This document shows positions 44,381 to 58,001 of a DNA stretch of 64,000 nt, one piece after another. The stretch is from an uncultured Candidatus Saccharibacteria bacterium. Its GTDB lineage: Bacteria > Patescibacteriota > Saccharimonadia > CAILAD01 > GCA-016700035. Numbering within the stretch: the stretch's first letter is position 1; each line of letters opens with the position of its first letter. Made by a program: the position numbers and the translations under genes. Location: the NCBI GenBank assembly GCA_964583675.1, contig CAZOVH010000002.1, positions 2,602 to 66,601 of the forward strand, given 5' to 3'. The notes under the pieces are model-generated. The model had not been told where the DNA came from. It saw only the letters and a program-made list of their open reading frames with translations, and did not search any database.

Positions 44381-45102
44381 GCAGCTCCTTGTCTTCTACG
44401 CTGCAGCCAAAATGCTGAGAATAAGAACACAACGCCAAGCAAGAAGGCGGCTGCCAAGACGTAAGAAGTGCTGTTAAGGTTCGCACTAAAATCAAAAATA
44501 GGCCTTAAGACATAAAGTCCACCAACTATCAAAAACAAGATTGCTAACACAAATAATCGAATTTTTTTTGCAACGTCCTGAGTTCCCCACCCTTGTGCAA
44601 GAAAGCGAGCAGCAATCAAGGGTAAACTAAGATATTGAACCGCTGTAACGAGCTGATACCCTCGAGAAAAAGCAAACTCTATCTGCCAGGCCCCATTAAC
44701 ATACTGCATAATTACTGGGTTTGCCAGATTTTCCTGAACGGAAAACCACATGCCGATACAAATAACAATTGCATCCAGGGCCGCGACAACATACATAACA
44801 CCCTTGCGGTCTGGGAAATAGATACGAGCGACAGCCAACCAGATCCAGAACAACGCCAGAAATTGCAGAGCATCACCAATAATAGTAGCATACGTAAGCA
44901 GTATGCTTGTCTCAGGAACGACTAGTGGAGTAATTCCGTAGAAAACTAGTGAAAAAAAGAATGTGATGGCACTTAGACCAAAAAAAGTGTTCAGTAGATT
45001 AGGTCCACTTTTTTGAGACTGAAAGCTCTTATATGCCACAAAGGCTAAAAGTGGCAAAGCTACATACCAATGTATTGCATTAAGCGGAAGACGCATCTGC
45101 AT
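44377..45102 (-). CDS. hypothetical polytopic membrane protein (paralog of 43658..44380)
   Basis: Tandem paralog, 4-nt overlap with downstream gene. Confidence 0.5.
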   Translation of the reverse strand: MQMRLPLNAIHWYVALPLLAFVAYKSFQSQKSGPNLLNTFFGLSAITFFFSLVFYGITPLVVPETSILLTYATIIGDALQFLALFWIWLAVARIYFPDRKGVMYVVAALDAIVICIGMWFSVQENLANPVIMQYVNGAWQIEFAFSRGYQLVTAVQYLSLPLIAARFLAQGWGTQDVAKKIRLFVLAILFLIVGGLYVLRPIFDFSANLNSTSYVLAAAFLLGVVFLFSAFWLQRRRQGAA

Positions 45103-45133
45103 GGATTATAGCACTTATGCTTCCTAAATAAAA

Positions 45134-45209
45134 TGGAGCCCGCGAAGGGACTCGAACCCATAACCTACGGTTTACAAAACCGTTGCTCTACCAATTGAGC
45201 TACGCGGGC
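45134..45209 (-). tRNA. tRNA-Thr (anticodon UGU)
   Basis: Reverse complement folds: acceptor GCCCGCG/CGCGGGC, D-arm GCTCAATTGGTAGAGC, anticodon stem ACGGT/ACCGT loop TTTGTAA, T-loop TTCGAGT (one U-U mismatch in T-stem), CCA encoded. Confidence 0.75.
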
Positions 45210-45572
45210 TGGTGCAGCATCCTAGCCGAAGTTAGAACTTTGCTACTCAACTATTCTATAACCTAACCTGATATGGCGCAACAGATTATTTGTACCCCCT
45301 ACCCTTTCCTATATATTGAATGATATCTTTCAATTACCATTATCCTATATCGGTAAAGTAGACTAGCTTATTGTGTATGTTTTTATATGTAGTTGTGCTA
45401 AGTAGCCACTTTCATATTTTGTTATGTTTTGTTAGGTTTTTTGAGGTTATATGTGCCATACGTAATTGAGGATATTAATAATCAAAATAGATTGAAGATT
45501 AGAACTATATTCAAACTTGAAAGGTAGGTTGATAACAAGACTATCAATCATATCGCTATTCTAAAAGATACC

Positions 45573-45894: not shown

Positions 45895-46461
45895 CTACAG
45901 TGCACTCTCCATAACTTTTAGCATTTCCTGCTGCTGGGTCGCAGTATAGTTGCTAGATACACGCAAAACTACATTACCATTCACCTTATAAGCGCCTGCA
46001 CTAATTGCCCCTGTCTGGAATTGTTCAAGATATTCACCCCTTGTTGCTGCATCTGCCCCAGAAGCAAATACTTCTATTGTGCCACCAGCATCTGTCCCAT
46101 AATTATCCTTACTGATGTCTATTTGGTTTCCATTCTCGTCGACAGGCTGATAGCCAGTACGTGTGTCATAGAAGCTCCCAGCGTATTGATACTCACCCTT
46201 TTTACCAAGTAAGTTGTTTGAGTCTGTAGCCTCAGTTACAACATAAACAGATTGAACTGTTGGGGTTTCAGCTTTTACTTTATCTAATACATCTTGTACT
46301 AATTCATTACCAGTCTTATTTTCTGCCTCGTTTTGAGTTTGATCTGTAGTTACAGAGCGAGGTTGCACGCTATTATTATTTGTATTGAAGTAGTACATCC
46401 CCGCGACCGCAGCTACAACTACCACCAAAACTACCACGCCTACTAGTACTTTCTTATTCAT
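45895..46461 (-). CDS. hypothetical secreted/membrane-anchored protein (island cargo)
   Basis: N-terminal TM/signal anchor VLVGVVVLVVVVAAVAGMYYF; Thr/Asn/Gly-rich ectodomain. Confidence 0.5.
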   Translation of the reverse strand: MNKKVLVGVVVLVVVVAAVAGMYYFNTNNNSVQPRSVTTDQTQNEAENKTGNELVQDVLDKVKAETPTVQSVYVVTEATDSNNLLGKKGEYQYAGSFYDTRTGYQPVDENGNQIDISKDNYGTDAGGTIEVFASGADAATRGEYLEQFQTGAISAGAYKVNGNVVLRVSSNYTATQQQEMLKVMESAL

Positions 46462-46562
46462 ACAACACTCCTATAATTTACAATTTCATTGCTTACTCTA
46501 TCATGCATGATTTTCTTTTCAAATATCTACTGCATTCTAATCACCAATATACTAAGGTCGAA

Positions 46563-47240
46563 TTAATATGACTCACAGCCATATCCATCTCCATCTCTAT
46601 CAAAGCGATGCTTATCGACACCGATAACAGTTACGCTGAAACCAATGTCTCCACAATCGAGATCGTATGAAACATTCGGGACACAGGGACTGTAGTTTGG
46701 ATCACAATTTCCCGCTGGTACTTGAGCTTTGGGCTGTGTCGCTGGCTGCTGGGTAACTGGGGCTGGCGGTGCTTGAGGAGTAGGAGTTGCAGCTGGCGTT
46801 ACTACAGCTGCAACCTTAGTACCCTTAGCAATACGCTTTACCGAGGGCTGCTCTACAATGACCTCACCTACTCTTTCTTTTTCTTCTTCAACTCCACCCG
46901 ATATTAGTACTCTATATGTAACTGCTTTCTTCCCTTCACGACCTTCCTGTAAAACTTTCGTTGTGCCTTCTTCTAGGTTCGAGTCATCTACTGTTTCAGT
47001 CGCATATCCAACTGTCTCGAAATCTGTATATTCCTTAAAACTATCTGGAGAAGACCCTGCGAACATACCTAGATAGAAAAGCATCATGATGGCAGACAAT
47101 ACGCTCAACGATACTTTTTGCCAAGTTGGCCGCAAAGACACGATCCATAAATACCAGAGAATAAATGGCGGGAAAAAGACGATCGCAGCTATGAACCCTG
47201 CAGGTCGTAAGTACCAAGGTCTTTTACTTTGAGCGTTCAT
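46563..47240 (-). CDS. membrane protein with G5 domain and C-terminal Excalibur calcium-binding domain
   Basis: Two N-terminal TM; G5-like LEEGTTKVLQEGREGKKAVTYRVL...VKRIAKGTK; Pro-rich linker; Excalibur motif DRDGDGYGCE. Confidence 0.55.
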   Translation of the reverse strand: MNAQSKRPWYLRPAGFIAAIVFFPPFILWYLWIVSLRPTWQKVSLSVLSAIMMLFYLGMFAGSSPDSFKEYTDFETVGYATETVDDSNLEEGTTKVLQEGREGKKAVTYRVLISGGVEEEKERVGEVIVEQPSVKRIAKGTKVAAVVTPAATPTPQAPPAPVTQQPATQPKAQVPAGNCDPNYSPCVPNVSYDLDCGDIGFSVTVIGVDKHRFDRDGDGYGCESY

Positions 47241-47953
47241 CTATCTACCTTTCCGTTACAGGTGTTTGCAGCCCAAAGCCCTCTAGTAGCATCTTTTGCC
47301 TGTTGCTCCAAGCTTATAAAATCATTTAGCTTAGCAGTAGGATATTTTCTGTACGCAAAAGCATAACCTTCCTCGACCATTACTGCATTGACTAAAGTTC
47401 CATCGGCTAGATATACATACCGCAACAAGCGACCGTATTTGTCTTTATCGCCCTGGCTCTCATCTACTACCAATACAACTGGCTTACCCTCTACGAGCTC
47501 TTTCATCTTGCGAGAAGCTTCAAACCCATAGCACTGCACTGGCTTCCGAGGATCTTTTGTCTCTGGAGTGTCGATTCCTAGCAACCTAACCTTATAGGTT
47601 ACGCCATCTGAGACCACTGTTATCGTGTCGCCATCCACAACGTTTTTGACGACCGCAGAAGAATCGGGCAGAGACTGATCAATTATCGCCTTGTCCTGCT
47701 TCTCTAAGACTTGGCTACTTGCCTCTTTCTCTAGACTAGCTATAGGTTGAGATGATATGGATTTATCATCTGGGGTTTCATATTCATCAGGGTCAGTAGT
47801 AAGAGAGCTGGCGTACAGTTGATTCATTTGAGCAACTTCTCTGGGTTGAAGCACAAAACTATACCATATGGTGTATAGTGTCATAACTAATATTAAGTGA
47901 AATACCAACATTAGCCATATTGTTGCTTTATGCTTTTTCCGACCTCGTGCCAT
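47237..47953 (-). CDS. membrane-anchored thermonuclease (staphylococcal nuclease homolog)
   Basis: N-terminal TM; SNase core VVDGDTITV...VRLLGIDTPE and downstream Arg/Glu/Tyr catalytic region. Confidence 0.75.
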   Translation of the reverse strand: MARGRKKHKATIWLMLVFHLILVMTLYTIWYSFVLQPREVAQMNQLYASSLTTDPDEYETPDDKSISSQPIASLEKEASSQVLEKQDKAIIDQSLPDSSAVVKNVVDGDTITVVSDGVTYKVRLLGIDTPETKDPRKPVQCYGFEASRKMKELVEGKPVVLVVDESQGDKDKYGRLLRYVYLADGTLVNAVMVEEGYAFAYRKYPTAKLNDFISLEQQAKDATRGLWAANTCNGKVDR

Positions 47954-48096
47954 TAATTGAATTCTACCCCTATATACTCAAATCGTATACTAAATGCGTT
48001 ATTGGTATAGCCACCCGCAGTTAAAGATACTCCTTCCGCTCCGCTTATATATAGACTGGAGGAGTAGCTATTAAGAGCTGCTGTGACGGGGGGTGT

Positions 48097-48582
48097 TCAT
48101 CTGCAGGTAGTTGTCCAGCCCCCAAACGGATTATAGGTGGAGTTACAGGTTGTGGACGGTACAGGTGATGGACTAGGCAAGGGTTGTAGTTGTAATGGAG
48201 CCGTGTAACTCGGTTGGGCTTGAGAAGTGCTGGTTGGTTTAGTGTTTGCATCATTTAGTAGCTGCCAGTAACCCTTCTTAAGGTCGGCCAGCTCCGTACC
48301 ATATTTGGCAATTAAATTATTCCTAGCATCCACTGTCTTTATTAATTGTTCGTTCTCCGCTGTCGCCTTTTCTTTTTCCGCAGTTATCTTAGATAGCTGG
48401 TCCAGTCCAGTCTTCTGGAGTCTGACAGTGTATACCGATAAACCCAACAAAGATACTAGTAATACATAAAAGCCGATCTGGTAAAATTTTGTTGTCCTGC
48501 TAGATTTTCTGGGATCCGAATTCCTTTTCAGCTCGGCAACTTCCGCCTCAAGTTTTTCAATATTTACTCGTTGGCCCTTCAT
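48097..48582 (-). CDS. hypothetical membrane protein with flanking coiled coils and Pro/Ser/Thr-rich Cys-pair tail
   Basis: Central TM FYQIGFYVLLVSLLGLSVYTV; heptad-rich segments; tail TTCNSTYNPFGGWTTTCR. Confidence 0.45.
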   Translation of the reverse strand: MKGQRVNIEKLEAEVAELKRNSDPRKSSRTTKFYQIGFYVLLVSLLGLSVYTVRLQKTGLDQLSKITAEKEKATAENEQLIKTVDARNNLIAKYGTELADLKKGYWQLLNDANTKPTSTSQAQPSYTAPLQLQPLPSPSPVPSTTCNSTYNPFGGWTTTCR

Positions 48583-48657
48583 AGCGCGTTCTCTCTAGTG
48601 CTTGATAAATGTAAATAAAAAATATTGGATATATACGACATTCGCATATGAACACTG

Positions 48658-49263
48658 CTACTCATCCAGCGACTCACTCAGCTTTTTTAACCCTTTTTTA
48701 TAGTATTTCATTTGGGTGTCTTGTGGCAGTTTTTGAATATCATCATCAGAGATATTAATTTTATTCACCTCTCGAAATCCTAGGCGAATAACGCTCATCT
48801 TCGCTAGGTCTTCATCGTTATGCGGACCGCTTTCTGTAGCAGTATTTTTCTTATCTATCAAGCCAGTCGAAGAGTTGCTAATACGACTCTTTGGCATCTT
48901 GGCTAACTGCTTGTTTTTATTGTAATACGCTACCCAACTAAGTAATGGCAATACCCAAATCGAGAAGCCACCCAAAAGAAATAAAATCATATTTGCTATT
49001 GCTGCAATGTTCTCCATCAGAGCTCGTGAATCAGCTGATTCACTACTATTTTGACCAAGTATAAAGTTGATTAGAGCATACAGTGCCACTGTAAGGCCAA
49101 ACATTATAAAAGGAGACCACAACCACCTATACATGCTGGTTACGAGCCTCTTTCTATCGGGTTGCATCTTAGAGAGTTGGCCAGCCGTGAAAGCCAGCTG
49201 AAACAATAAGAATATGTTTACGAAGAGCGCAACTATAATCATGGGGAAAGAGGAGTTTTCCAT
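48658..49263 (-). CDS. hypothetical multi-TM protein, short member of island paralog family (single C-terminal KLGF..VN..DI.K.P...KYY..GL repeat)
   Basis: N-terminal membrane domain and C-terminal repeat both align to 50565..51647. Confidence 0.5.
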   Translation of the reverse strand: MENSSFPMIIVALFVNIFLLFQLAFTAGQLSKMQPDRKRLVTSMYRWLWSPFIMFGLTVALYALINFILGQNSSESADSRALMENIAAIANMILFLLGGFSIWVLPLLSWVAYYNKNKQLAKMPKSRISNSSTGLIDKKNTATESGPHNDEDLAKMSVIRLGFREVNKINISDDDIQKLPQDTQMKYYKKGLKKLSESLDE

Positions 49264-49323
49264 GCACTGAATTATACACCACCAAGATCTAAGCGCTGAA
49301 TGCTATCTATCTACAAACAGCTT

Positions 49324-49677
49324 TCACTTGTTGATCTTTTTGCGATACTCGATTTGGTGATATAAAGCTACCAGAGTATAAAAAAACCCACCGATAAGGA
49401 AAGCGAAGCCGCCTGCCCAGAAAAATGAGATTACAATTGCAATTGCAAAAGCACTTAATCCAACCTTCAATTCCCTATTAGCTTTTTCCTTAATTAATGA
49501 AGGATTATCCGTTTCTTCTTTTTTCGTTTCATTGGTGACAATACTAATATACTCAAGGGCCTTCTCTTTTGATCCAGCCTGTTTCTTAATTGCTCTGACT
49601 ATGCTTCCTTTTGAATAAAACTGTGATTTTAAACTTTTTATTTTCTCTTCGATCTCTGGTGGCACTGATTGATTCAT
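49324..49677 (-). CDS. hypothetical protein with C-terminal double TM hairpin
   Basis: Soluble Lys/Glu-rich N-domain then GLSAFAIAIVISFFWAGGFAFLIGGFFYTLVALY. Confidence 0.4.
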   Translation of the reverse strand: MNQSVPPEIEEKIKSLKSQFYSKGSIVRAIKKQAGSKEKALEYISIVTNETKKEETDNPSLIKEKANRELKVGLSAFAIAIVISFFWAGGFAFLIGGFFYTLVALYHQIEYRKKINK

Positions 49678-49694
49678 GATGTAATCCTTACCTC

Positions 49695-50120
49695 CTATTC
49701 ACCCTTACGAAATGTAGAAAACTCACCCAGGTTTGCCAATATATCTCTATCTATCGATTCGATAAATGCACCGAACATCTTTTTATCATATCCGTAGTAT
49801 TCAGACTCTACTACCAACGTAAGGTCCTCAGGGTCACCATCATCCTTTGACTCTTCATAAAACCATTTACTATATACTGCTTGATTAACCGTATTTATTG
49901 CATTAAAAAAATCTTTACTTCCTAGCGCCTTAGGGTTGAAGCCCGACCATCTCATCGTGACAGTAAGCATATCGCCATTAAAATTTAATAGATAGGAAGC
50001 TCCACGGTCTCGCTCAGCAAAATACAATGATCCTTTATTTTTGCCTATATCTTCGGTTTCAAAACCTAAAAACTCCATGTGTTCAAGAATCTTGTCTTTG
50101 TTGCTTGCCTTATCTGTCAT
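49695..50120 (-). CDS. hypothetical cytoplasmic protein (weak YbjN-like resemblance)
   Basis: Only soluble protein in cassette; start chosen at MTDKA to avoid overlap; family call tentative. Confidence 0.35.
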   Translation of the reverse strand: MTDKASNKDKILEHMEFLGFETEDIGKNKGSLYFAERDRGASYLLNFNGDMLTVTMRWSGFNPKALGSKDFFNAINTVNQAVYSKWFYEESKDDGDPEDLTLVVESEYYGYDKKMFGAFIESIDRDILANLGEFSTFRKGE

Positions 50121-50568
50121 TACCTTGTCCTTTCTTAATCGTGTCCCAGTCACGCAATTTTTCACTTGGGCGGATAGTTTTTAGATTATCATTTTTTACA
50201 GCTTCGGAAGAGTGCTTTTTGCTGGACGCCTGAAAGTCATCTTGTCCCTCTAAATAATCTCTACGCTCGTCCCCTGCTAAATAACTTTCAATAGCCTCCG
50301 CCTTAAGCTTATTAACACTAAATATGATCATTATCCCCGCCCATAAGCTACCATACATGAACGTAGTAGAAAATGCAGAAACGACTATTAGTACAAGGCT
50401 AGACCATACAATTGGGACTATAATAACTGGCCAATTCATTTTTTTTATCTCCCCCGTTCTAAGAAGTTTCCTTCTAAGGGGCAGTGTTGCAAATATACTT
50501 CCCAATATATTTGACCATAAGAATAAACCGACGACCCAACCAATAAAACCTATTAATAGACCTGTCAC
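50110..50568 (-). CDS. hypothetical membrane protein (3-4 TM) with charged C-terminal tail
   Basis: ORF with hydrophobic N-terminal two-thirds. Confidence 0.4.
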   Translation of the reverse strand: MTGLLIGFIGWVVGLFLWSNILGSIFATLPLRRKLLRTGEIKKMNWPVIIVPIVWSSLVLIVVSAFSTTFMYGSLWAGIMIIFSVNKLKAEAIESYLAGDERRDYLEGQDDFQASSKKHSSEAVKNDNLKTIRPSEKLRDWDTIKKGQGNDR

Positions 50569-51647
50569 TTCAGCATCCTCAATCCAGCTTGATAATATTT
50601 ATCTAGTTCCTTTTCTGGCATTTTTTCGATATCTTCAGTAGCTACAGAAAAATTATTCACATGCTTAAATCCCAGTTTAATTATTTCTAGCTTTACCCGT
50701 AACTCATCTCCACTGATCTTTTCTTCATTTGTCGGGCTTAGCGCGTGTTTTCTATAGTTACTAACCCTCATGCCTTCTTCCAGGTATGATTCTAGCTCTC
50801 TCTTGGAAAGATTTTCTAATACCTCTGGAAAAACATTCTTTACATTGTGACGATGCGAATAACCGCGCCTAATTAGCATTTCCTTCTCATCCACTGTCAA
50901 GCCTGCAGCCGCTGCCCTATCCAGCTTAGCTACTCTCTTTTCAAGAGCTGAGGCATCCAATTTTTTGATTTTATGAACTGAGTGTATGGCAATTATCGTC
51001 CACACTAAAACTATCAAGGGTATAATTCCTCCCGAAACTAGAATTGTAGACATTAACAAAATCCACAGTTTCGCTAGCAAGAATTGATTATTGCTGCGAA
51101 TTGAACGTCCAAGCATTATGAAGTAGGTTCCTAGAAGCAAGATAATAATAAATGCAACTAAATAGCTCGGCAAATCACCCCCTTCAGGACCTGAAAGCAA
51201 CAATAACCCTGACGATATAATAATTATTGCAAACCCCATTTGATAACTTCCATCTCCCGCCCGAGTTATCAAACGTAAATAACGCTCCACCTTTTTTTCT
51301 TCTGGTGATAATGCCCTTATAGGCTGTTTCAAGGGCTCATTCAGTTCACGTAGTGCCTGGTAGGTTACATACCAGCTATAAAACGGCAATATAAATGCCG
51401 CTATGAAGCCCAGGAGAAACAGTATTGTGTTCAGAATTGTGCTGATGTTCGCACCCAAATCACTATCAGCATCAATGACCGCATTGGTGAAGCCATATAA
51501 TAACAAGCAAGACAAAACGATAATTATTGGAAGCCAAAGCCAGAAGTAAGCCTTTTTCAATCGTTTTCGCTGAATTGGGTTTTTCTTCTTCTGTACTAAA
51601 GACCTAAACTCTAGAACTACAAGGATTATCAGATTTATTAAAAACAT
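50565..51647 (-). CDS. hypothetical multi-TM protein, long member of island paralog family (two copies of C-terminal ~35-aa repeat)
   Basis: RKRLKKAYFWLWLPIII... aligns with 48658..49263 N-domain; repeats GYSHRHNVKNVFPEVLENLSKRELESYLEEG and GFKHVNNFSVATEDIEKMPEKELDKYYQAGL. Confidence 0.5.
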   Translation of the reverse strand: MFLINLIILVVLEFRSLVQKKKNPIQRKRLKKAYFWLWLPIIIVLSCLLLYGFTNAVIDADSDLGANISTILNTILFLLGFIAAFILPFYSWYVTYQALRELNEPLKQPIRALSPEEKKVERYLRLITRAGDGSYQMGFAIIIISSGLLLLSGPEGGDLPSYLVAFIIILLLGTYFIMLGRSIRSNNQFLLAKLWILLMSTILVSGGIIPLIVLVWTIIAIHSVHKIKKLDASALEKRVAKLDRAAAAGLTVDEKEMLIRRGYSHRHNVKNVFPEVLENLSKRELESYLEEGMRVSNYRKHALSPTNEEKISGDELRVKLEIIKLGFKHVNNFSVATEDIEKMPEKELDKYYQAGLRMLK

Positions 51648-51749
51648 TCTAGTTATTCCTACATCTAACTATATACCCAGTAAACCAAGCATACAATTAT
51701 ACTTGATATGGTGTTAAGACCAGCCTTAAGCTGATATCATTGCTTCGAG

Positions 51750-52340
51750 ATGACTCCACAGCCCAATAAACAGTATATGCCAAGCTTAAAGTACAGGAGC
51801 GATTGGCACAGGTATTTGGTCTTCAATGACCCCGAGTTTATTAATGCTTATAATTCGATTGATCAAGACGATAAGCAAAGTATGTATCAGAAATCTTGTG
51901 CATTCGAGCTGCTTGCCAGATCTTTCGCACTCACGACTTCCGATATGAACATTTTTAAATTATCTAAATCTATATACATAGAGGGTAAAACCACGGGAGC
52001 TAACTTAGAGTTTGATCCGATGTCTGGAAAGTATTCAATTGTTTTTCAGCCAGATACTCCTCTAGTCGAAATACAGGATGAGCTAAACAAATTTAAAAAC
52101 TTGAGAGACTCACTCTTCCCGATTAAGCAAACTAAGCGAAAGCCACCACACGACCCTGCACTTATATATGCCATCTTCAAAGCTCGGCAACAAAAGCTAA
52201 CTTTCAATAAAATTTTCGAGCTATATGAGAACAGCACACTGCCCTACTATGGCGGCGACAATCAAAAGTATCAGAGCCGTGAAGATCTCGAGAAGTACTA
52301 CGACAACAATAAGCCAATAAGAACTTTAAACAAATCTTAG
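51750..52340 (+). CDS. hypothetical protein (196 aa), first plus-strand gene of island replication/integration module
   Basis: Clean ORF, Lys/Tyr-rich, no family recognised. Confidence 0.4.
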   Translation: MTPQPNKQYMPSLKYRSDWHRYLVFNDPEFINAYNSIDQDDKQSMYQKSCAFELLARSFALTTSDMNIFKLSKSIYIEGKTTGANLEFDPMSGKYSIVFQPDTPLVEIQDELNKFKNLRDSLFPIKQTKRKPPHDPALIYAIFKARQQKLTFNKIFELYENSTLPYYGGDNQKYQSREDLEKYYDNNKPIRTLNKS

Positions 52341-52478
52341 ATTGGTTATACAACTAGTTTTCCACCTGCTTTAATGGCATCTGAGATGACATTGGTAGTC
52401 CCCTGAGAAATAGTCATCTCCTCGGGGGACTACCTATTAACAATAGGTATCAGACGTAGCCTAGCCACGGGGAAAGCT

Positions 52479-52688
52479 ATGAAACTTAGCGATGATAATA
52501 TCACTCAGCTTCAACACATACTGAAAAGCCAAAACGATATTGATGCAACCGACTTGGAGGCTCAGCAAATTGGCCTGGCAGTAATGCGCTTCGTGTTAGC
52601 CAAGCATCTAAATACTTTCAAGGATACCTCGGAGGAAAAGAGAGATGAAAATAACGCCGTTGAGCATCCTACAAAGCCAACATATTGA
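52479..52688 (+). CDS. hypothetical small acidic protein (69 aa) overlapping start of primase gene
   Basis: ORF only; could be regulator/excisionase-like, unverified. Confidence 0.25.
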   Translation: MKLSDDNITQLQHILKSQNDIDATDLEAQQIGLAVMRFVLAKHLNTFKDTSEEKRDENNAVEHPTKPTY

Positions 52689-54765
52689 GTACCAAGAAAT
52701 ACAAAACGAGTTAGTCATTAAATGTCAGTTTAGTGATTGCGACGATGACAGTAGGGGCAAAGAAGCTCATATGTATGTAAATAAAGATTCAGGCGCATAC
52801 TACTGTCATAAGTGCTATGCAAAGGGCGGCTTGCAAGATCTATTGGAGCACTTCGGTATAGATGCTAAATCCATTGGGAGTGATCCTAAGAATGACCTGA
52901 AACAAACCGCAATCAAATACCACCTCGGCCTGCCTCCGTATATAAAAGATTACTTAGTGAAAGATAGGCTTCTTCATGATGAAGAGATCAATGATCGATT
53001 ACTTGGTTTTATGGTAGACCAATCTGGAGTTGGCTGGATTACCATTCCTGTGTTTAGTCAGCATAACGATATATTATTCATCAAAATGAGAAAAGACCCA
53101 TCGTTGCCCAATTCCATTAGCCCCAAATATAAGTCGTCTGGTGGATCAGCAGCCATATATAATGCGCAAATCATCAATGATCAGCCAGAACGACTAGTTA
53201 TCTGTGAGGGTGAATTTGACTGCATGCTTTTGTCATCCCTTGGCGTTCCAGCGATTAGCTCAACTGCTGGCGCAGGTACCTTTAAGGATCAGTGGGTAGA
53301 CCAACTGTCATTCGTACGTGAGTTCTATGTAATTATGGATAATGATGACCCAGGAAGAAAAGGAGCTGAAGCCTTAATTCAGAAGCTACATGCAGCGCAT
53401 CCCGACGCATCGATTATGAACGTCCAGTTGCCGTCCGTTTTAGGGAAAGGTGGAGATATTACTGACTTCATCAAGCATGAACTTGGAGATATCGATGATT
53501 TACTCAGTCCAGATAGTAAGCTTGTGAGTCTCGCAGCTGGATCAAGACCGATTAACCCCTCCTCTTTTAGTGAAATGAGTCTAGATGAGCTAGTTGAGAT
53601 ATTATCCATGACTATCAAATTCGATCGAGAAAACAAACTTATAACTTTTTTCGCATGCCTATCAGCTTACACCCTCTCAGATCAGATCAATGTTAGCTAT
53701 AACGCACCAAGCTCATCGGGCAAAACATATATCGTCAACGAAGTGGCTAAACTATTTCCAGATGCCGATAAAATCGAATCAAATGGTGCAAGCCCAACTT
53801 CCTTTTTCCACGGTTCAGGCAAAATCGATGAGAAAAGAAATGCAAAAATCATTAACCTCTCTCGGAAAATCCTTATCTTCTACGAACTCCCAAACCCAAT
53901 ACTGCAATCTAAACTGCGATCCGTTTTATCCCATGACAGCTGGGAGATAAATCACCGTATTACCAATAAAGACAAAAAGGGTGCCCATCGAGTCGAACAT
54001 ATAATTCTTGAGGGCTTCCCTGCCACTATATTTTGCTCTGCCAATATGCGGCTAGACGAACAAGAAGCAACCAGAGCAATACTCTTAAGCCCTGAAGTAA
54101 GCCAGGAGAAGTTGAGCGAAGCTGTGCATCTACAAGCTCTAAAAGCCGCAAACCCCGAAAAGTACCATACAGACCTTGACTCCGATCCAAGACGGAAGTT
54201 ACTTAAAGATCGCATACTCGCGATCAAGCGTGAGCGAGTAGATCATGTAACTCTAAACCCCTCAAGTACTAGAGAAATAGAAAAACGTTTTATGGCGAGC
54301 TTCCATAGATTTAAGCCAAGACACATGAGAGATGTTGGGCATTTGATACAACTCATTAAAGCTATTACCCTACTGAATATTTGGCACAGACAAGATTCTG
54401 ATGGGAAAATTGTCGTGTCACAAATAGACATTGAACAGGGATTAAACCTTTGGATGCACTATCGAGAAAGCCAGGATCTTAATATTAGCCCTATTGCCAC
54501 CTCATTCTACAAGCAATATATATTACCAGCATATTTAGAAAAACGTGGAGACAATTATGAGTTCAGTGAAGGTGTCACACGGCAAGAAGTATGTAAATAC
54601 TATCTCAAAATTGAGCGCGCTCCATACAACGATGAGTACCTAAGAAAACAAATCCTGCCCCAGCTTGAGAATAGCGGACTAGTATCGCAAGAACAGCCGC
54701 AGAGCGGCGATAAGCGTACAAAGCACATCATTCCTAAGTGGTTCTTCCGCGATGAAGATATATAG
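52645..54765 (+). CDS. DnaG-type primase (CHC2 zinc finger + TOPRIM) fused to C-terminal P-loop NTPase domain (replication initiator of the element)
   Basis: Zinc finger CQFSDC...YYCHKCYAKGG; TOPRIM LVICEGEFD and IMDNDDPGRKG; Walker A NAPSSSGKTYIV in C-terminal half. Confidence 0.7.
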   Translation: MKITPLSILQSQHIEYQEIQNELVIKCQFSDCDDDSRGKEAHMYVNKDSGAYYCHKCYAKGGLQDLLEHFGIDAKSIGSDPKNDLKQTAIKYHLGLPPYIKDYLVKDRLLHDEEINDRLLGFMVDQSGVGWITIPVFSQHNDILFIKMRKDPSLPNSISPKYKSSGGSAAIYNAQIINDQPERLVICEGEFDCMLLSSLGVPAISSTAGAGTFKDQWVDQLSFVREFYVIMDNDDPGRKGAEALIQKLHAAHPDASIMNVQLPSVLGKGGDITDFIKHELGDIDDLLSPDSKLVSLAAGSRPINPSSFSEMSLDELVEILSMTIKFDRENKLITFFACLSAYTLSDQINVSYNAPSSSGKTYIVNEVAKLFPDADKIESNGASPTSFFHGSGKIDEKRNAKIINLSRKILIFYELPNPILQSKLRSVLSHDSWEINHRITNKDKKGAHRVEHIILEGFPATIFCSANMRLDEQEATRAILLSPEVSQEKLSEAVHLQALKAANPEKYHTDLDSDPRRKLLKDRILAIKRERVDHVTLNPSSTREIEKRFMASFHRFKPRHMRDVGHLIQLIKAITLLNIWHRQDSDGKIVVSQIDIEQGLNLWMHYRESQDLNISPIATSFYKQYILPAYLEKRGDNYEFSEGVTRQEVCKYYLKIERAPYNDEYLRKQILPQLENSGLVSQEQPQSGDKRTKHIIPKWFFRDEDI

Positions 54766-54948
54766 GAATGCATGGTGGGTACCCTTACCGAAAGATAAAT
54801 AAACGGATATAATGGCTATGTTGAAACACCCAGTAATTATGCGTGAAGTCTTTTTATTTCCGCTCGTTAAGGGCGGCTTGGTACGGAAAGTGGCTTTGTG
54901 CTACTGGATGTTTCAACAGCCGAGCCGTCCTTTTTGATTGGAGAAATT

Positions 54949-56586
54949 ATGAGTAATTTAAAGTATATCGCTTATGTACGCAAGTCTACCGAAGATGAAG
55001 AACGGCAAGTTCTATCCAGAGCTGCTCAACGAGACAAGATTAATGAAATATTCGGCGAACTTACTATAATTGACTACCTCGATGAGAGTAAAAGTGCGTT
55101 TGAGCCAGGGAAAAGGCCTATTTTTGATCAAGTTTTGGCCAAGTTAGATTCTGGCGAAGCTGATGGGATAATTGCTTGGCATCCAGATCGACTTTCACGA
55201 AACGCCATAGATGCTGCTGCCATAAGCCATCGTATTAGCAAAGGAACAATTAAGGATCTGAAGTTCGCGAGCTTCAGCTTTGACAACTCACCAGAAGGCA
55301 TCATGATGCTTCAGATGACGATGTCTCAATCTCAATACTTTTCAGCAAAGCTGAGTAAAGATATTAGACGAGGCAATGAAAAAAAGCGTCAGCTAGGTGG
55401 CTTAACAGGAAAAGCTATGGAGGGCTACCTGAATGATCGCATGAATAAGACAACCATTATTGATCCAGCTCGATTCCCGTTAATCCGTAAGGCGTTTGAC
55501 CTATATTTAACTGGAGAATATAGCGTCCAAGCAATTCTACGTATACTCAATGATGAATGGGGCTATACGACCCTTAAGCGAAAAAGGACTGGAGGGGGCC
55601 CACTCTCTCGAACATCTCTATACAATATATTTCGAAACGTGCGATACGCTGGACTAATACCAGACCCTTACGACCCAGAAAAGCTGTATAAATCTGAGTA
55701 TCCAGCAATGATTACGATTGAAGAGTATGACCAAGTTCAGCTACTGCTAGGTAGAAAAGGACTTCCTCGATTGGTAGCAAAGAAAGAATTTGCACTACGT
55801 GGGCTAATTCGCTGTGGTGAATGTGGATGCAGCATTACCGCTCAAACCAAAAAGAAGAAAATGAAGTGCGGGACGATAAAGCCTTATACGTACTATCATT
55901 GTACTGGTAAACGACCTGGCTGCAGCCAAAAAAGTATATATGTAAGAGAAGAGCAGCTATATAAGGAGCTGACAATTCTACTAGATAAATATCAGCTAGA
56001 CGAACGTCTATTTGACTGGGCCCTAGAGGCCTTTAAGGATATGGCGGCAGCTGAAGTGACTGAAAGAAATCATGTGCAATTGATACAGGACAATAAAATC
56101 CATGATACTCAACGTCAACTGGATAAACTGCTAGATTTAGCAACCAAAGAACTTATAACTACTGAAGAATATTCACTGAAAAGCGAACAGTTGAAAGCAG
56201 CACTAAATACACTTCAGAAAGATCAAACAAATACTGCAGCCCGCACTAAGAACTGGTATGAGTTTGCTACAAATACCCTACACACACTCTGCGATGCTGA
56301 AAATAGGTTCATTAACGGAGATATAGTGGTAAAGAAAGAAATACTACTGGCTATTGGTCAGAACCCTACCTTATTGGATGGAAAATTGCATATCACACCA
56401 GTAAAATGGTTGAATCCAGTCGCAAACTCAACTGAGCATATTACAAAGGAGCTTAATAAGGTTAGAACCTTATCTCTACAGATGCAAAAAGCCTCCGAAG
56501 AGGCTGTTCGTCATCAATGGTGCAGGGGGAGGGATTCGAACCCCCGAAGGCATAAAGCCGACAGATTTACAGTCTGTTGCGTTTGA
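54949..56586 (+). CDS. large serine recombinase (resolvase/invertase catalytic domain + recombinase domain + zinc ribbon)
   Basis: N-terminal YVRKSTEDEERQ with catalytic Ser, DGIIAWHPDRLSRN; Cys4 CGECGC...CTGKRPGC; SD GGAG 7 nt before ATG at 54949; 3' end overlaps tRNA-Tyr on opposite strand. Confidence 0.8.
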   Translation: MSNLKYIAYVRKSTEDEERQVLSRAAQRDKINEIFGELTIIDYLDESKSAFEPGKRPIFDQVLAKLDSGEADGIIAWHPDRLSRNAIDAAAISHRISKGTIKDLKFASFSFDNSPEGIMMLQMTMSQSQYFSAKLSKDIRRGNEKKRQLGGLTGKAMEGYLNDRMNKTTIIDPARFPLIRKAFDLYLTGEYSVQAILRILNDEWGYTTLKRKRTGGGPLSRTSLYNIFRNVRYAGLIPDPYDPEKLYKSEYPAMITIEEYDQVQLLLGRKGLPRLVAKKEFALRGLIRCGECGCSITAQTKKKKMKCGTIKPYTYYHCTGKRPGCSQKSIYVREEQLYKELTILLDKYQLDERLFDWALEAFKDMAAAEVTERNHVQLIQDNKIHDTQRQLDKLLDLATKELITTEEYSLKSEQLKAALNTLQKDQTNTAARTKNWYEFATNTLHTLCDAENRFINGDIVVKKEILLAIGQNPTLLDGKLHITPVKWLNPVANSTEHITKELNKVRTLSLQMQKASEEAVRHQWCRGRDSNPRRHKADRFTVCCV

Positions 56587-56604
56587 CCGCTTCGCTACCC
56601 CTGC
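56518..56604 (-). tRNA. tRNA-Tyr (anticodon GUA), type II with long variable arm
   Basis: Reverse complement: acceptor GCAGGGG/CCCCTGC, anticodon loop CTGTAAA, long variable arm CGGCTTTATGCCTTCG, T-loop TTCGAAT, CCA encoded. Confidence 0.85.
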
Positions 56605-56614
56605 ATGCTTGATC

Positions 56615-56689
56615 TGGAGCCCAAACCGAGGATTGAACTCGGGACCTCTTCCTTACCATGGAAGCGCTCTACCACTGAGCTATTTGGGC
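56615..56689 (-). tRNA. tRNA-Thr (anticodon GGU)
   Basis: Reverse complement: acceptor GCCCAAA/TTTGGGC, D-arm GCTCAGTGGTAGAGC, anticodon stem CTTCC/GGAAG loop ATGGTAA, T-arm CCGAG-TTCAATC-CTCGG, CCA encoded. Confidence 0.85.
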
Positions 56690-56749
56690 GTGCATTTACT
56701 CCGAGTAAACAGAGCCTAGTCTATCATTTTTGCTCATGATTTTCAATGC

Positions 56750-57355
56750 TTACGCTGCAAATCGAGCAGCCTGCTTCTTCACTGCTGAACTATCAGGATC
56801 GAGCCGACGGGCTTCATCTAGTGCTCCAGCAATTTTATCGTTTCTGCCTGTCGCCTCATAGAGCCTTACTAGTGCCAGCAGTCTACTAACCGATGCCTCT
56901 AGCCCATTCGCTTTTTCCATAGCCACAATCGCCTCTTCATAGCCCTTCTCGCGATACAATACGGTAGCTAAATTCTGCCAGTCAGAAGCTGTGTTTTGTG
57001 ATTTTGCGACCATTTCAAAACACTCCGTGGCATCCTCATAATTTTGCACATGTGAATACACCATGCCAAGGCGACGATATGCCAAGATGTTTTTATGATC
57101 TAGCTTTAACACCTTTAAGTAGGCCTTCTCGGCAGCGACCCATTTACGCTCATCATAATAACGTCCTGCCGCTGAGAGCAGCCGCTCCAACTGACTTTCG
57201 TGCGTAATCGCCTCATTATCCATGCCGGCATTTAAATAATGGGCAAGCTGGTTGTAGTTTGAGCGAATAATGCGCCAAGTTACAAAAGCCACAAGCATAA
57301 AAGCTATCAGCTCAAACACGACTCTCACCTCCCGCTTGTACTGCGCTAGCTTCAA
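56750..57355 (-). CDS. membrane-anchored tetratricopeptide (TPR) repeat protein
   Basis: N-terminal TM then TPR-like W/Y/A/L pattern (AEKAYLKVLKLDHKNILAYRRLGMVY...). Confidence 0.6.
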   Translation of the reverse strand: MKLAQYKREVRVVFELIAFMLVAFVTWRIIRSNYNQLAHYLNAGMDNEAITHESQLERLLSAAGRYYDERKWVAAEKAYLKVLKLDHKNILAYRRLGMVYSHVQNYEDATECFEMVAKSQNTASDWQNLATVLYREKGYEEAIVAMEKANGLEASVSRLLALVRLYEATGRNDKIAGALDEARRLDPDSSAVKKQAARFAA

Positions 57356-58001
57356 GTAAGAGTCTCATGTTGCCACTTTTTTGTGTCTTTACAAATTTTT
57401 CTTGCAGCCAGGCCGCTAAGGAATAATTCTTGCGCTGCTGACTATAAAATAAAAGTCCTTCTGCAAAAGCCAGCTGTTCTCCTCTATCTGTCAGTTGAGC
57501 GATTTGCGCAAACCTTCCCGGAATACCCTGTGTAAAAAAATGCGTTGCAGCCGATGACATCACCTCATCCTGCGAGGATGTCATCACTCCAGCAGATACT
57601 ATCTGAGATCTAGAACGTAGCGTTGGCATGAGTCGTGCAACGGTAGGGGTCAGCAACATAAATACCACATGTTCAGAAGGCTCTTCTAACGACTTAAGCA
57701 GCGCATTCCCAGCCTCGGGCGTGAGCTGCTCAGCACCTTCTATAACAATAATTCGGTAGTCGCCGCCAAACGCAGTCATTGATAGATCATGTAAGACGCC
57801 GGCAATGCGCTCCCGCGAGATACTCTTTTCGGGAACAACATAAGTAAATGCGGTTGGGGCTACGGCCTGCCCCGCGCGAGCTAAAATTTCACCCGCTAAA
57901 GCCTCGGCCCGCGCACGCCGATTAGTCTCGTCACTGCCCGTAATAATATAAGCGTGTGTCGTCGTATGCGACTTACTCATTTGGTTCATACTCGCAATCA
58001 T
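57312..58001 (-). CDS. holB: DNA polymerase III delta-prime-like subunit (short HolB-like clamp-loader subunit)
   Basis: AAA+ lid elements: IIVIEGAEQLT, ALLKSLEEP, TLRSRSQI (sensor-2-like SRC motif). Confidence 0.6.
   Translation of the reverse strand: MIASMNQMSKSHTTTHAYIITGSDETNRRARAEALAGEILARAGQAVAPTAFTYVVPEKSISRERIAGVLHDLSMTAFGGDYRIIVIEGAEQLTPEAGNALLKSLEEPSEHVVFMLLTPTVARLMPTLRSRSQIVSAGVMTSSQDEVMSSAATHFFTQGIPGRFAQIAQLTDRGEQLAFAEGLLFYSQQRKNYSLAAWLQEKFVKTQKSGNMRLLLEASAVQAGGESRV

Follow-up and report, generated by a model that had tools for sequence, protein, structure and literature searches.

A DnaG-type primase fused to a predicted MCM-like AAA+ module, the likely replication protein of an island integrated at tRNA-Tyr in Saccharibacteria

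Several described systems resemble the locus analysed here in one or more of their parts, and the following are the closest: (i) T7 gp4 and Twinkle, in which an N-terminal Cys4 ribbon and a TOPRIM primase are fused to a ring-helicase-type NTPase, the motor being of the RecA-fold SF4 (DnaB-type) class; (ii) the alpha protein of P4, a small integrative element with a tyrosine integrase and iteron origins, which unites a TOPRIM-type primase, an AAA+-class helicase of the SF3/D5-like kind and a C-terminal origin-binding domain; and (iii) SCCmec Cch/Cch2 and SaPI Rep (DUF927-type), which carry an MCM-like AAA+ module and a C-terminal DNA-binding domain. The proteins of this last group are encoded on chromosomal islands, with small partner proteins in the same operon and a large serine recombinase immediately downstream. 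[quoted passage not shown]

Fusions of an MCM-type motor to a primase have been described for BcMCM of a Bacillus cereus prophage and for other MCMs of bacterial mobile elements (Kazlauskas et al., 2018, PMC5862659); in these proteins, the primase is of the AEP type and the MCM part can be recognized by sequence. So far, bacterial MCM-like motors have been found with AEP primases or in DUF927-type proteins of staphylococcal islands. Regarding whole elements, tycheposons are PICI-like, measure 10-20 kb, target tRNA genes and combine a terminal integrase, an adjoining small replication module and cargo (Hackl et al., bioRxiv 10.1101/2020.12.28.424599). They belong to marine cyanobacteria and mostly use a lineage-specific tyrosine recombinase and helicases of the DnaB or VirE type.

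The window considered here (the whole stretch of DNA that was analysed, 64,000 nucleotides long) contains a 706-aa protein which, in our judgement, is likely to replicate the 11.3-kb integrative element that encodes it; on the same reading, the hairpins found in a spacer 5' of its operon are most likely local regulatory structures and the origin lies outside that spacer. The protein and its parts are as follows:

52645-54765, plus strand: fusion of a primase, an MCM-like AAA+ module and a winged helix (706 aa), putative replicase of the element
52723-52815, plus strand: Cys4 zinc ribbon (aa 27-57), from invariant cysteines and PHROG 2304 and 19847
53191-53430, plus strand: TOPRIM core of the DnaG-type RNA-polymerase domain (aa 183-262), with E188, E190, D192, D232 and D234
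53677-54099, plus strand: predicted MCM-like AAA+ core (aa 345-485), with Walker A at 53704-53727 and the Walker B strand ILIFYE at aa 409-414
54580-54735, plus strand: C-terminal winged helix (aa 646-697), predicted from a helix-helix-strand-strand pattern and presumed to be the origin-binding domain

The gene has a GGAGG ribosome-binding site 9 nt 5' of its ATG. A first-pass annotation of this DNA had described an open reading frame of 706 codons with a TOPRIM domain and a Walker A motif, and this was borne out: EGEFD (aa 188-192), DNDDPG (231-236) and APSSSGKT (354-361) are invariant or nearly so across 32 homologues. The same annotation had assigned the N-terminal zinc finger to the CHC2 type of DnaG. 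A zinc ribbon is indeed present, with ligands C27, C32, C54 and C57 invariant in the 32 sequences, but its pattern, C-x4-C-x21-C-x2-C, is that of a Cys4 ribbon as in T7 gp4 and not the CHC2 pattern (C-x2-H...C-x2-C); H42, which is not fully but nearly invariant, does not occupy the CxxH position. PHROG 2304 and 19847 cover this zinc-ribbon part (aa 8-92), and one homologue (P0002) weakly matches PF01807 (E 0.0057).

The acidic residues listed above for the TOPRIM core are invariant in the homologue alignment. Pfam Toprim_2 is matched with an E-value of 1.9e-7 (31.8 bits vs. a curated cut-off of 22.1), and the DNA primase families PHROG 47, 239 and 849 are matched over aa 8-368 with E-values from 3e-26 to 2e-18. 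When the family profile was compared with PDB sequences, the DnaG and T7 primase cores were matched (E 2e-6, profile positions 132-282), while Foldseek returned Aquifex DnaG 2au3 (9e-13). The primase half thus matches T7 gp4 by profile and fold, and Twinkle by fold. Profiles and predicted fold support the assignment of the N-terminal third to the DnaG-type primases, consisting of a Cys4 zinc ribbon and a TOPRIM RNA-polymerase core. In tblastn searches of phage (50,697 records) and plasmid (72,556 records) sequences, the primase half alone was matched, with 21-34% identity, and the C-terminal half had no match.

The C-terminal 60% of the protein is an AAA+ ATPase that is an orphan at the sequence level; in its predicted fold, it comes nearest to the MCM helicases. 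As far as sequence is concerned, aa 300-706 have no usable match in Pfam, NCBIfam, PHROG or PDB; no MCM or NTPase family of Pfam is matched by aa 292-706 at E <= 10, the sole match being CadC_C1 at chance level (E 0.082); the family profile retrieves no MCM among PDB sequences; and the protein does not qualify as a member of the MCM family PF00493. Turning to structure, the AlphaFold model of the C-terminal half (pLDDT 84.8, pTM 0.87) is closer to MCM chains than to BrxL or MoxR-type neighbours by 5-9 Z units. An independent Foldseek search with the full-length model returned MCM2-7 and archaeal MCM again, and among the structural neighbours in BFVD are DUF3987 and DUF927 proteins, phage helicases and primases.

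Some details of the predicted core can be added, for comparison with MCM cores, which have a pre-sensor-1 beta-hairpin with a basic tip, a helix-2 insert and an SRF-type arginine finger. In the model, aa 434-441 and 449-456 form a beta-hairpin whose connecting turn holds the invariant lysines K442 and K445; another hairpin, a small one, is placed at aa 393-404. The Walker B motif has the form hhhh[Y/L][E/D], i.e., with one acidic residue instead of the DE pair of canonical MCM, and an invariant R477 is found within DEQExTR, just ahead of the last core strand. A helical lid and then the winged helix are predicted C-terminal to the AAA+ core. The N-terminal OB-fold/zinc domain of canonical MCM is absent; the N-terminal 290 aa are the primase, and in standalone relatives, which are 390-480 aa long, the N-terminus is no more than a short stretch.

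For this C-terminal half, the D5, VirE and PriCT families had been put forward. None of them is matched in Pfam at E <= 10, and the half was recognized neither as an SF3, D5_N, VirE or PriCT helicase domain nor as a RecA-fold SF4 (DnaB-like) one; an MCM-like AAA+ module is predicted instead. The more general proposal of a primase-helicase replication protein gains support, since an MCM-like module is not a non-replicative NTPase.

When compared with the systems introduced above, the protein differs from T7 gp4 and Twinkle in its motor, which is predicted to be AAA+ and MCM-like and to be followed by a winged helix, and from P4 alpha in the lack of any D5, VirE or PriCT signal. It differs from BcMCM-type fusions in having a DnaG-type primase and no sequence-level MCM signal. 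It is most like SCCmec Cch/Cch2 and SaPI Rep in layout: as judged from the model, the combination that characterizes SCC/SaPI-type initiators (MCM-like AAA+ module, C-terminal DNA-binding domain and adjoining large serine recombinase) appears to be present, as are a small partner protein in the operon and a location on a chromosomal island. With tycheposons, in turn, the element shares its size class, tRNA targeting, an integrase at one end with a small replication module next to it, and the presence of cargo.

The genes and non-coding features around the primase gene are the following:

51750-52340, plus strand: 196-aa open reading frame, first gene of the plus-strand module, with no family match
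52341-52478, plus strand: 138-bp spacer with hairpins, between the 196-aa and 69-aa open reading frames
52479-52688, plus strand: conserved 69-aa open reading frame, helical partner (iterated HMM, alignment)
54814-54948, plus strand: conserved structured element 5' of the recombinase gene (covariation, shuffles)
54949-56586, plus strand: large serine recombinase (545 aa from the ATG at 54949) with Resolvase, Recombinase and Zn_ribbon_recom domains

The spacer had been described as directly preceding the 706-aa frame; its length of 138 bp is correct, but the 69-aa frame intervenes. This small frame overlaps the start of the primase by 44 nt, which suggests translational coupling of the two genes. 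It has no match in Pfam. Outside the window, an iterated HMM placed a relative of it just 5' of the primase-MCM gene at 58 related loci. For the 196-aa frame, just six homologues were found; in contig L098, a 33% relative sits 5' of the replication operon.

The recombinase gene begins 183 nt past the end of the primase gene and matches PHROG 95 (integrase, E 2e-71); of 80 related loci, 58 likewise have a large serine recombinase 3' of the primase-MCM gene. Its last codons, about 20, are the antisense of tRNA-Tyr. The structured element in front of it comprises four nested stems and a pseudoknot-like pairing (approximately 54876-54889 with 54920-54933), and is followed by a T-run, GGAG and the ATG at 54949. 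Of its 28 pairs, 18 covary, with 92% of cells paired (39-46% in slid controls; 0 of 500 shuffles as good), and all 17 sequences of the alignment have the pseudoknot pairing. Inasmuch as the element travels with the recombinase gene, which it precedes in about 30 related loci, and carries strand-specific G.U pairs, it looks like an RNA leader and is probably a 5'-UTR RNA. It has no match in Rfam, and could represent a new cis-regulatory RNA for the control of excision and integration.

The element as a whole is delimited by these features:

45218-56517, no strand: integrated mobile island of 11,300 bp, from an empty-site contig (L096) and a drop in GC
45210-45217, no strand: left att core, 8-bp direct repeat TGGTGCAG, abutting the 5' end of tRNA-Thr(tgt)
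56518-56604, minus strand: tRNA-Tyr(gta), from ARAGORN and the empty site

That the 11.3-kb island was inserted as a discrete unit into a chromosome of Saccharibacteria type (Patescibacteria), where it occupies the tRNA-Tyr 3' end, is proven by contig L096, where the sequence from 56518 onwards is fused straight to that ending at 45217, with an 8-nt overlap and 97-99% identity. The right att core, TGGTGCAG at 56518-56525, is the tRNA-Tyr 3' end itself and the target of integration, and the GC content falls to 40.5% in the island from 46-47% in the flanks. Integrative elements of the large-serine-recombinase class are characterized by discrete insertion with an allele that lacks the element, a short repeated core and an adjoining recombinase gene, and all of these are found here. 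Each contig recovered is in either the integrated or the empty state. Positions 45165-56672 are 100% identical in the Logan contig L085; the 11.5-kb Logan contig was considered as an excised circle, but this was rejected, as it is the integrated form, broken within both flanking tRNA-Thr genes and without a terminal repeat. The inverted repeat 45292-45316/54758-54782 was likewise rejected as the two att arms, since an element bounded by it would not include the recombinase gene, and the empty site fixes the true ends. The attP junction of the excised island is predicted to read ...GTTCGTCATCAA-TGGTGCAG-CATCCTAGCCGAAG...

According to the mechanism that we propose, the island would excise and the winged helix would bind an origin on the circle. 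The AAA+ domain would then form a ring that melts and unwinds the DNA, probably in the 3'-to-5' direction like MCM and Cch, the fused primase would make primers, and a host polymerase would extend them. This replication logic would be that of P4 alpha, SaPI Rep and SCCmec Cch2.

The spacer was said to hold two adjacent perfect hairpins of 9 and 7 bp. Both exist, and the first is stronger than claimed: GGTAGTCCCC (52394-52403) pairs with GGGGACTACC (52425-52434) over 10 perfect bp, and the stem can be extended to 14 bp with one G.T pair (52394-52407/52421-52434) around a 13-nt loop. Hairpin 2 is the palindrome TACCTATT-AAC-AATAGGTA (52431-52449), with 8 bp and a 3-nt loop. They are not simply adjacent, but overlap by 4 nt (TACC, 52431-52434), and because these nucleotides are common to both, the two hairpins cannot both fully form on one strand. 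Furthermore, a third stem of 8 bp (52383-52390/52413-52420) competes with hairpin 1. The spacer folds better than any of 200 shuffled versions (z = -3.5 as DNA, -3.8 as RNA) and has no match in Rfam. Perfect stems of at least 10 bp number 10 in the window vs. 1.2 in Markov simulations, and 8-bp stems 34 vs. 19; hairpin 1 exceeds chance, and an 8-bp stem on its own is unremarkable.

The perfect pairing of both hairpins is due to A52432; five close relatives have a T at that position, which produces a mismatch in both. The hairpins are confined to such near-identical strains and are imperfect there. Comparable structures are absent in contig L082 (a 59% relative) and in the distant relative L098, and among 57 loci with at least 150 nt 5' of the small frame, the window alone has a perfect 10-bp stem (8-9 bp in 11 others). 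The close relatives are 97-99% alike in the spacer, too similar for covariation to be assessed. Their divergence is a mosaic, with the spacer and the 196-aa gene in a block of 2-3% and the small frame and the primase-MCM gene in one of 10-12%; purifying selection on the spacer, suggested by its low divergence among close strains, was therefore rejected, as the 196-aa gene and a divergent intergenic region are equally similar. In contig L101, which has an 87% homologue of the 196-aa gene, the 90 nt downstream to the contig end are unrelated to the spacer.

The spacer had also been proposed as a candidate replication origin, with GC skew and iterons as means to check it. Skew proved uninformative because it follows gene orientation, its change at about 51.6 kb coinciding with the switch in gene strand. 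Iterons or tandem repeats were not found in or around the spacer, where, apart from the inverted repeats described, the only repeats (8-16 nt) occur in two copies, and nowhere on the island does an 8-mer occur three or more times within 300 bp. With 44.9% GC, the spacer lies above the island average and is not AT-rich. What is expected of an iteron-type origin, i.e., repeats beside an AT-rich region and conservation in homologous replicons, is not seen, and the hairpins are missing from homologous elements at or below 59% identity. The proposal finds no support; the hairpins are probably a strain-level feature and not an origin, bearing in mind that a fast-evolving, element-specific origin would likewise appear unconserved. 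Going by their position, where the 196-aa gene gives way to the replication operon, they most likely form a local element that regulates in cis or works at the level of the transcript. They may act, for instance, as an operator over a weak promoter-like site or as an attenuator: ATGACA-17-AATAGT (52386-52414), a weak promoter match (9/12), overlaps hairpin 1. This hairpin has no T-tract, unlike the evident terminators of the same genome at 1568, 26909 and 59932.

Other explanations concern both the protein and the hairpins. That the 706-aa protein is not a replicase at all, but an effector of defence or RNA-processing type combining a TOPRIM nuclease and an ATPase, is very improbable. Several sources do label its homologues as 5S rRNA maturation endonuclease (RNase M5), and also as 'toprim domain-containing protein', PADLOC matches it to the DnaG-like domain of a DRT defence reverse transcriptase (1e-12), and the AAA+ neighbours also include BrxL and MoxR-type proteins. 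Nevertheless, the PADLOC match spans the DnaG-like stretch alone (aa 159-303), what the N-terminal half fits is a whole primase core, comprising zinc ribbon, N-subdomain and TOPRIM, rather than nucleases of the OLD or M5 kind, MCM chains score above BrxL and MoxR-type proteins by the margin given earlier, and the gene is tied to recombinases on integrative elements. As for the hairpins, it is rather unlikely, though less so, that they have no dedicated function and are an inverted repeat that arose by chance or persists as a relic, or else a weak structure resembling a terminator behind the 196-aa gene. Hairpin 1 begins 54 nt past a stop codon, hairpins are in excess genome-wide, and those of the spacer are both imperfect in each close relative checked and conserved in no other element. 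Still, a 14-bp stem is very rare by chance in 138 bp, given that only 1.2 perfect stems of at least 10 bp are simulated per 64 kb, and the missing T-tract tells against a terminator.

Where replication starts is the remaining point. We think it improbable that the hairpins are the origin, or a single-strand initiation signal for the primase or the winged helix, so that spacer and gene would form a minimal replicon. Primases of plasmids and phages are known to use priming signals of the hairpin type, the spacer adjoins the replication operon, and hairpin 1 far exceeds chance and is highly stable, its 14-bp form folding better on the plus strand because of the T.G pair. Against this, the hairpins are conserved solely in near-identical strains, whose consensus mismatches the base common to both; iterons and an AT-rich unwinding region are lacking; the spacer co-segregates with the block of the 196-aa gene and not with the replication block; the sequence after the 196-aa homologue in L101 is unrelated; and SaPI and SCCmec have their origins 3' of the helicase gene. 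This precedent favours an origin elsewhere on the island, either in the stretch that leads from the primase-MCM gene's end to the recombinase gene or in the left end (45218-45572), a possibility to be taken seriously even if it stays somewhat below even. The left end is a non-coding stretch of 355 bp with 31.5% GC, located beside attP in the circular form; it includes the 100-nt segment in which the island is richest in AT (45410-45509, 76% AT) and a 10-bp phased repeat (TTTTGTTAGG, 3.2 copies), but has no tie to the replicase. At the gene 3' end, distant relatives carry the nucleotide-invariant motif AATAGTGAG-N7-8-GTGGGGTAA, sometimes in two or three copies, of which the window retains one degenerate copy (54774-54781), changed in close relatives. 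The gap between primase and recombinase genes is, besides, mostly filled by the RNA-leader-like element that travels with the latter. A hairpin at the gene 3' end is strong in distant relatives, but was discarded as a conserved element of the window, since it is not significant here (z = -1.4) and shows no covariation in the window's clade.

The reading of the 706-aa protein as a replication protein has consequences beyond this island. Its family comprises about 1,350 clusters at 50% identity, mostly from Patescibacteria, and while some members stand alone, others carry a DnaG-type primase or a different extension at the N-terminus; no description of a primase-MCM-like family was found in the literature. 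We tentatively suggest, at close to even odds, that the C-terminal module defines an undescribed, Patescibacteria-centred family of MCM-like initiator helicases which, together with the 60-70-aa partner, the recombinase and the pseudoknotted leader RNA, forms the core of widespread self-replicating islands. Here, the MCM-like motor would be joined to a DnaG-type primase, which would widen the range of such motors in bacteria. Mobile elements of the Patescibacteria (candidate phyla radiation) are poorly characterized and tools for these bacteria are scarce; the partner, the replicase and the serine integrase with its 8-bp tRNA-Tyr core form a compact module and a candidate starting point for vectors that replicate or integrate in Saccharibacteria. 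Current domain libraries miss the family, whose members are mislabelled as RNase M5. Some homologues carry the Pfam label PF27228 (MTBMA_p00010_2nd).

The replicase gene, i.e., the gene of the 706-aa primase-NTPase fusion, lies in an integrative island driven by a serine recombinase, as proven by an empty site. A metagenome collection was searched for a pattern in which the tRNA-Thr(tgt) 5' end meets the tRNA-Tyr 3' end, and two empty sites were found. The empty-site contig L096 follows window positions 57986..56518 at 99% identity and then directly 45217..44416 at 97%, the two alignments sharing 8 nt (TGGTGCAG); hence, the island is bounded at 45218 and 56517. Across 45.2-56.5 kb, GC falls to about 0.40. 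Other assemblies hold identical or at least 90% similar copies of the island at the same site, and the recovered contigs present the integrated or the empty state in every case.

Features of the island and of its replication region (window positions)
45218-56517: integrated island of 11,300 bp at the tRNA-Tyr 3' end, with a flanking 8-bp direct repeat
52341-52478: spacer, 138 bp
52383-90 / 52413-20: third stem, 8 bp, competing with hairpin 1
52394-52403 / 52425-52434: hairpin 1, 10 perfect bp
52431-52449: palindrome (second hairpin), 8 bp, TACCTATT-AAC-AATAGGTA
52479-52688, + strand: small partner ORF, 69 aa, with a 44-nt overlap with the primase start
52645-54765, + strand: replicase ORF, 706 aa

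The next gene after the replicase extends at its 3' end into tRNA-Tyr and encodes a large serine recombinase (Resolvase, Recombinase and Zn_ribbon_recom domains; PHROG 95 integrase match, 2e-71). No capsid, terminase or conjugation family was matched by those island ORFs that went into the Pfam search, nor by the eight that went into the PHROG search. The recombinase ORF spans the attachment junction (window 56518-56586 and 45218-45280): in the integrated state its last 20 or so codons are antisense tRNA-Tyr, while reconstruction of the circle replaces the C-terminal ...WCRGRDSNPRRHKADRFTVCCV by ...WCSILAEVRTLLLNYSIT, and the length would be 541 instead of 545 aa. Since the ORF ends differently in both states, integration alters the recombinase C-terminus. 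Regarding the cargo, positions 46563-47953 on the minus strand encode two recognizable proteins, one with a G5 domain and one with a staphylococcal-nuclease domain, the latter also matching the PADLOC candidate model SNc+LTD (2.8e-39). The remaining cargo ORFs matched no family; several of them resemble membrane proteins when their translations are judged by eye.

The N-terminal part of the replicase is a DnaG-type primase. Its gene has a GGAGG ribosome-binding site 9 nt 5' of the ATG. In an alignment of 32 homologues (42-92% identity), the following residues are invariant or near-invariant: (i) the cysteines C27, C32, C54 and C57; (ii) the TOPRIM residues of CEGEFD (E188, E190, D192) and DxD (D232, D234); and (iii) those of the Walker A motif NAPSSxGK[TS] (G359, K360). 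The four conserved cysteines make the zinc ribbon one of the Cys4 type, like that of T7 gp4, and not the CHC2 zinc finger proposed by the first-pass annotation. The TOPRIM domain (EGEFD / DNDDPG) recognized in that annotation is upheld by the conserved acidic residues and by a Pfam Toprim_2 match scoring over its curated cut-off, and the C-terminal Walker-A NTPase by G359 and K360 together with an AAA+ fold in the predicted model. Besides, PHROG 47, 239 and 849 (DNA primase, DNA primase/helicase) match the replicase at 3e-26 to 2e-18 over a combined span of aa 8-368, and the PDB entries of DnaG and T7 gp4 are matched by the family profile in their catalytic cores (about 2e-6). The top Foldseek match of the full-length AlphaFold model (pLDDT 85.2) is Aquifex DnaG (9e-13), followed by Twinkle, T7 gp4 and T4 gp61. 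In public annotation, the homologous proteins P0009, P0015, P0040, P0104 and others appear as '5S rRNA maturation endonuclease (ribonuclease M5)', a label which stems from the TOPRIM match alone and almost certainly misnames them; the other source label is 'toprim domain-containing protein'. Some homologues have a weak precomputed match to PF27228 (MTBMA_p00010_2nd).

Sequence searches with the C-terminal half (aa 300-706) came back empty from Pfam, even with the threshold at E <= 10, and likewise from NCBIfam, PHROGs, the PDB and collections of 50,697 phage and 72,556 plasmid records. This half is neither D5/SF3 (no D5, VirE or PriCT match in Pfam) nor DnaB-like, nor does it belong to the Pfam MCM family. 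Its layout was obtained by mapping conservation onto the predicted model.

Layout of the C-terminal half of the replicase (predicted model)
After the first core strand: Walker A (model and conservation)
aa 409-414: Walker B strand, ILIF[Y/L][E/D] (model and conservation)
aa 434-441 / 449-456: beta-hairpin, its inter-strand turn holding K442 and K445 (both invariant)
R477: invariant, within DEQExTR, directly before the last core strand
aa 646-697: C-terminal winged helix, preceded by a helical lid (model)

In the model, the beta-hairpin (aa 434-456) would correspond in position to the pre-sensor-1 hairpin of MCM, and R477 would occupy the place of its arginine finger. Fold neighbours of this half, with their figures, include Mg-chelatase BchI (16.0), RavA (15.2), BrxL (11.8), the SCCmec helicase Cch (11.5), ComM (10.8) and SaPI Rep (9.1), the initiator helicase of SaPI islands; MCM matches were returned independently by Foldseek. 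Predicted viral structures add DUF3987 and DUF927 proteins, phage helicases and phage primases to the neighbours that bear a name. Layout and fold neighbours together argue that the predicted fold is MCM-like; the N-terminal OB-fold domain of MCM proteins is absent from the replicase. Thus, the original reading of the protein as a primase-helicase is borne out and sharpened: a DnaG-type primase fused to a sequence-orphan AAA+ motor, MCM-like by its model, and a winged helix. Primase-helicase initiators of integrative elements are already known; this domain combination and this protein family appear undescribed, and no paper describing the replicase family was found in the literature.

By analogy with P4 alpha (the satellite phage primase-helicase), SaPI Rep and the SCCmec helicase Cch2, the recombinase would excise the island as a circle, and the winged helix of the replicase would then bind a putative origin. 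The AAA+ domain would form a ring, melting and unwinding the DNA, the fused primase would make the primers, and a host polymerase would complete synthesis.

Full-length homologues, which measure about 720 aa, were found in a number exceeding 1,250, and 184 relatives came from a scan of species-representative genomes. Of these loci, 80 were kept; the great majority are assigned to Patescibacteria lineages (Saccharibacteria, Nomurabacteria, Uhrbacteria, WWE3, Berkelbacteria, Peregrinibacteria and others), and in 58 of the 80 a recombinase gene lies 3' of the replicase gene. An exhaustive phmmer search with the C-terminal half returned 1,348 clusters (50% identity) at E <= 1e-3, 396 of them at E <= 1e-30; the matching proteins measure about 390-480 aa (C-module alone), 500-560 aa or about 700-1,000 aa. 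The C-module occurs without primase in 13 genome loci (L057, L059-L064, L068, L070-L072, L076, L078), whose recombinases are 55-63% identical to that of the window; in most of them the small ORF, too, is represented upstream by a relative. It is also found without a matching primase half on three viral contigs (the gene on L090 encodes a 482-aa protein), and other relatives bear N-terminal extensions of different lengths. The conserved core therefore consists of the small partner and the MCM-like/winged-helix protein, to which the primase is fused frequently but optionally. Beyond the window, 58 related loci have a relative of the 69-aa ORF directly 5' of the replicase gene, as detected with an iterated HMM. 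The 69-aa protein matched no Pfam family; it appears translationally coupled to the replicase and may be a loader or cofactor.

Regarding the putative origin, the 138-bp spacer exists as first described but does not abut the 706-aa ORF, as the 69-aa ORF intervenes. Likewise, both hairpins are present, though with other dimensions than the 9 and 7 bp claimed: hairpin 1 has 10 perfect bp, or 14 bp around a 13-nt loop if one T.G pair is included, and the palindrome has 8 bp. Rather than being adjacent, they have TACC in common and, in consequence, their ends are mutually exclusive. Spacer folding reaches z = -3.5 as DNA and -3.8 as RNA. The window contains 10 perfect stems of at least 10 bp versus 1.2 per simulated window, a rarity which implies that hairpin 1 is not a chance event; by itself, the 8-bp palindrome is only mildly unusual.

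That the hairpins act as an origin or priming signal is improbable, and this half of the origin/operator proposal lacks support. The hairpins are missing from homologous elements, the very outcome which the first-pass annotation had named as speaking against its proposal. At the spacer position, the 59% relative L082 and the distant relative L098 have other genes and no comparable hairpin. When 57 loci were compared in which the sequence 5' of the small ORF spans 150 nt or more, a perfect 10-bp stem was confined to the window, with one of 8-9 bp in 11 others. No iterons were found in the spacer or the rest of the island; spacer GC (44.9%) is over the island mean, and the GC-skew change near 51.6 kb falls at a gene-strand switch. 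The experimentally studied origin of SaPI lies directly 3' of the helicase gene, as does that of SCCmec, in the cch2-ccrC intergenic region. In the close island relatives (L081, L086, L087, L088, L102), the spacer is 97-99% identical to that of the window, and all five carry T instead of A52432, the base common to both hairpins; this gives one mismatch per hairpin, and so the perfect form is specific to the window's strain. Spacer divergence is 2.4%, against 3.4% for the 196-aa gene 5' of it, 2.9% for the divergent intergenic region and 10-12% for the small ORF and the primase-MCM gene. As the upstream neighbours are about as similar, low divergence is not specific to the spacer, which goes with the upstream block of a mosaic rather than with the replication block.

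The preferred, albeit tentative, reading is that the hairpins, placed between the 196-aa gene and the replication operon, are an operator or an attenuator at the transcript level. A weak promoter-like site, ATGACA-17-AATAGT (52386-52414; 9/12 matches), overlaps with hairpin 1. This hairpin lacks the T-tract present in evident terminators of the same genome, and its 14-bp form, which requires a T.G pair, is plus-strand specific. Such a local regulatory role is a real possibility, while hairpins without any dedicated function are rather unlikely; these estimates overlap, each having been judged singly. Over window 49500-56600, divergence from L086, L087 and L088 is mosaic: the 196-aa gene, spacer and recombinase gene differ by 2-3.5%, the small ORF and replicase gene by 10-12% and the cargo ORFs at 49.7-50.6 kb by 37-45%, a pattern which suggests module exchange between related islands. 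On contig L101, the 196-aa gene has an 87% homologue, after which the 90 nt up to the contig end are unrelated to the spacer.

Other sites can be considered. In distant relatives (L016, L029, L030, L032, L036, L040, L043, L048, L050, L051, L058, L067), the replicase-gene 3' end has a 27-nt motif, AATAGTGAG-N7-8-GTGGGGTAA, which is nucleotide-invariant even at the third-codon positions of in-frame copies. Short motifs related to it lie close to the stop codon in 49 of 76 loci (2.3 expected), and some loci have 2-3 copies. The motif is complementary to the winged-helix wing codons (TTACCCCAC) about 55 nt upstream, the resulting hairpins measuring 39-93 nt (mostly 57-67 nt) and reaching -25 to -33 kcal/mol in the best cases. 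Most copies (37/42) are in-frame coding (peptide NNSE-x3-GGV), and 5/42 span or follow the stop codon. This motif may serve the replicase as a dual-coding binding site or as an origin, or may be a peptide motif only; the window has one degenerate copy left (54774-81), with no significant hairpin. Another candidate origin is the left end of the island (45218-45572; 355 bp non-coding, 31.5% GC), which adjoins attP in the circular form and contains a 76% AT stretch (45410-45509) and a phased 10-bp repeat (TTTTGTTAGG x3.2; 45417-45448). A 25-nt inverted repeat, 80% complementary (45292-45316 versus 54758-54782), links this left end with the replicase stop-codon region; in the circular form its arms would bracket the recombinase gene and attP.

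Finally, a conserved structured element of roughly 135 nt (54814-54948, + strand) lies directly 5' of the recombinase start. It starts just past a TATAAT box, ends with a T-run and GGAG-N7-ATG (54949), and folds into four nested stems, the inner loop additionally pairing in a pseudoknot-like manner with the 3' tail. RNAalifold on 17 diverse sequences gave 28 pairs, 18 of them covarying, with 92% of cells paired (slid-partner controls, 39-46%) and none of 500 shuffles as good. In 17/17 sequences, 11-18 bp form between the innermost-stem loop and the 3' tail, also with covariation, and up to three G.U pairs per helix indicate that this pairing is strand-specific and RNA-like. The element, which had no Rfam match, is a candidate new cis-regulatory RNA for the integrase. 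It was detected by nhmmer in about 30 related loci (among them L001, L002, L015, L057-L079, L082 and L043); in L015, where a 700-nt insert splits the recombinase from the replicase gene, it remains with the recombinase gene.
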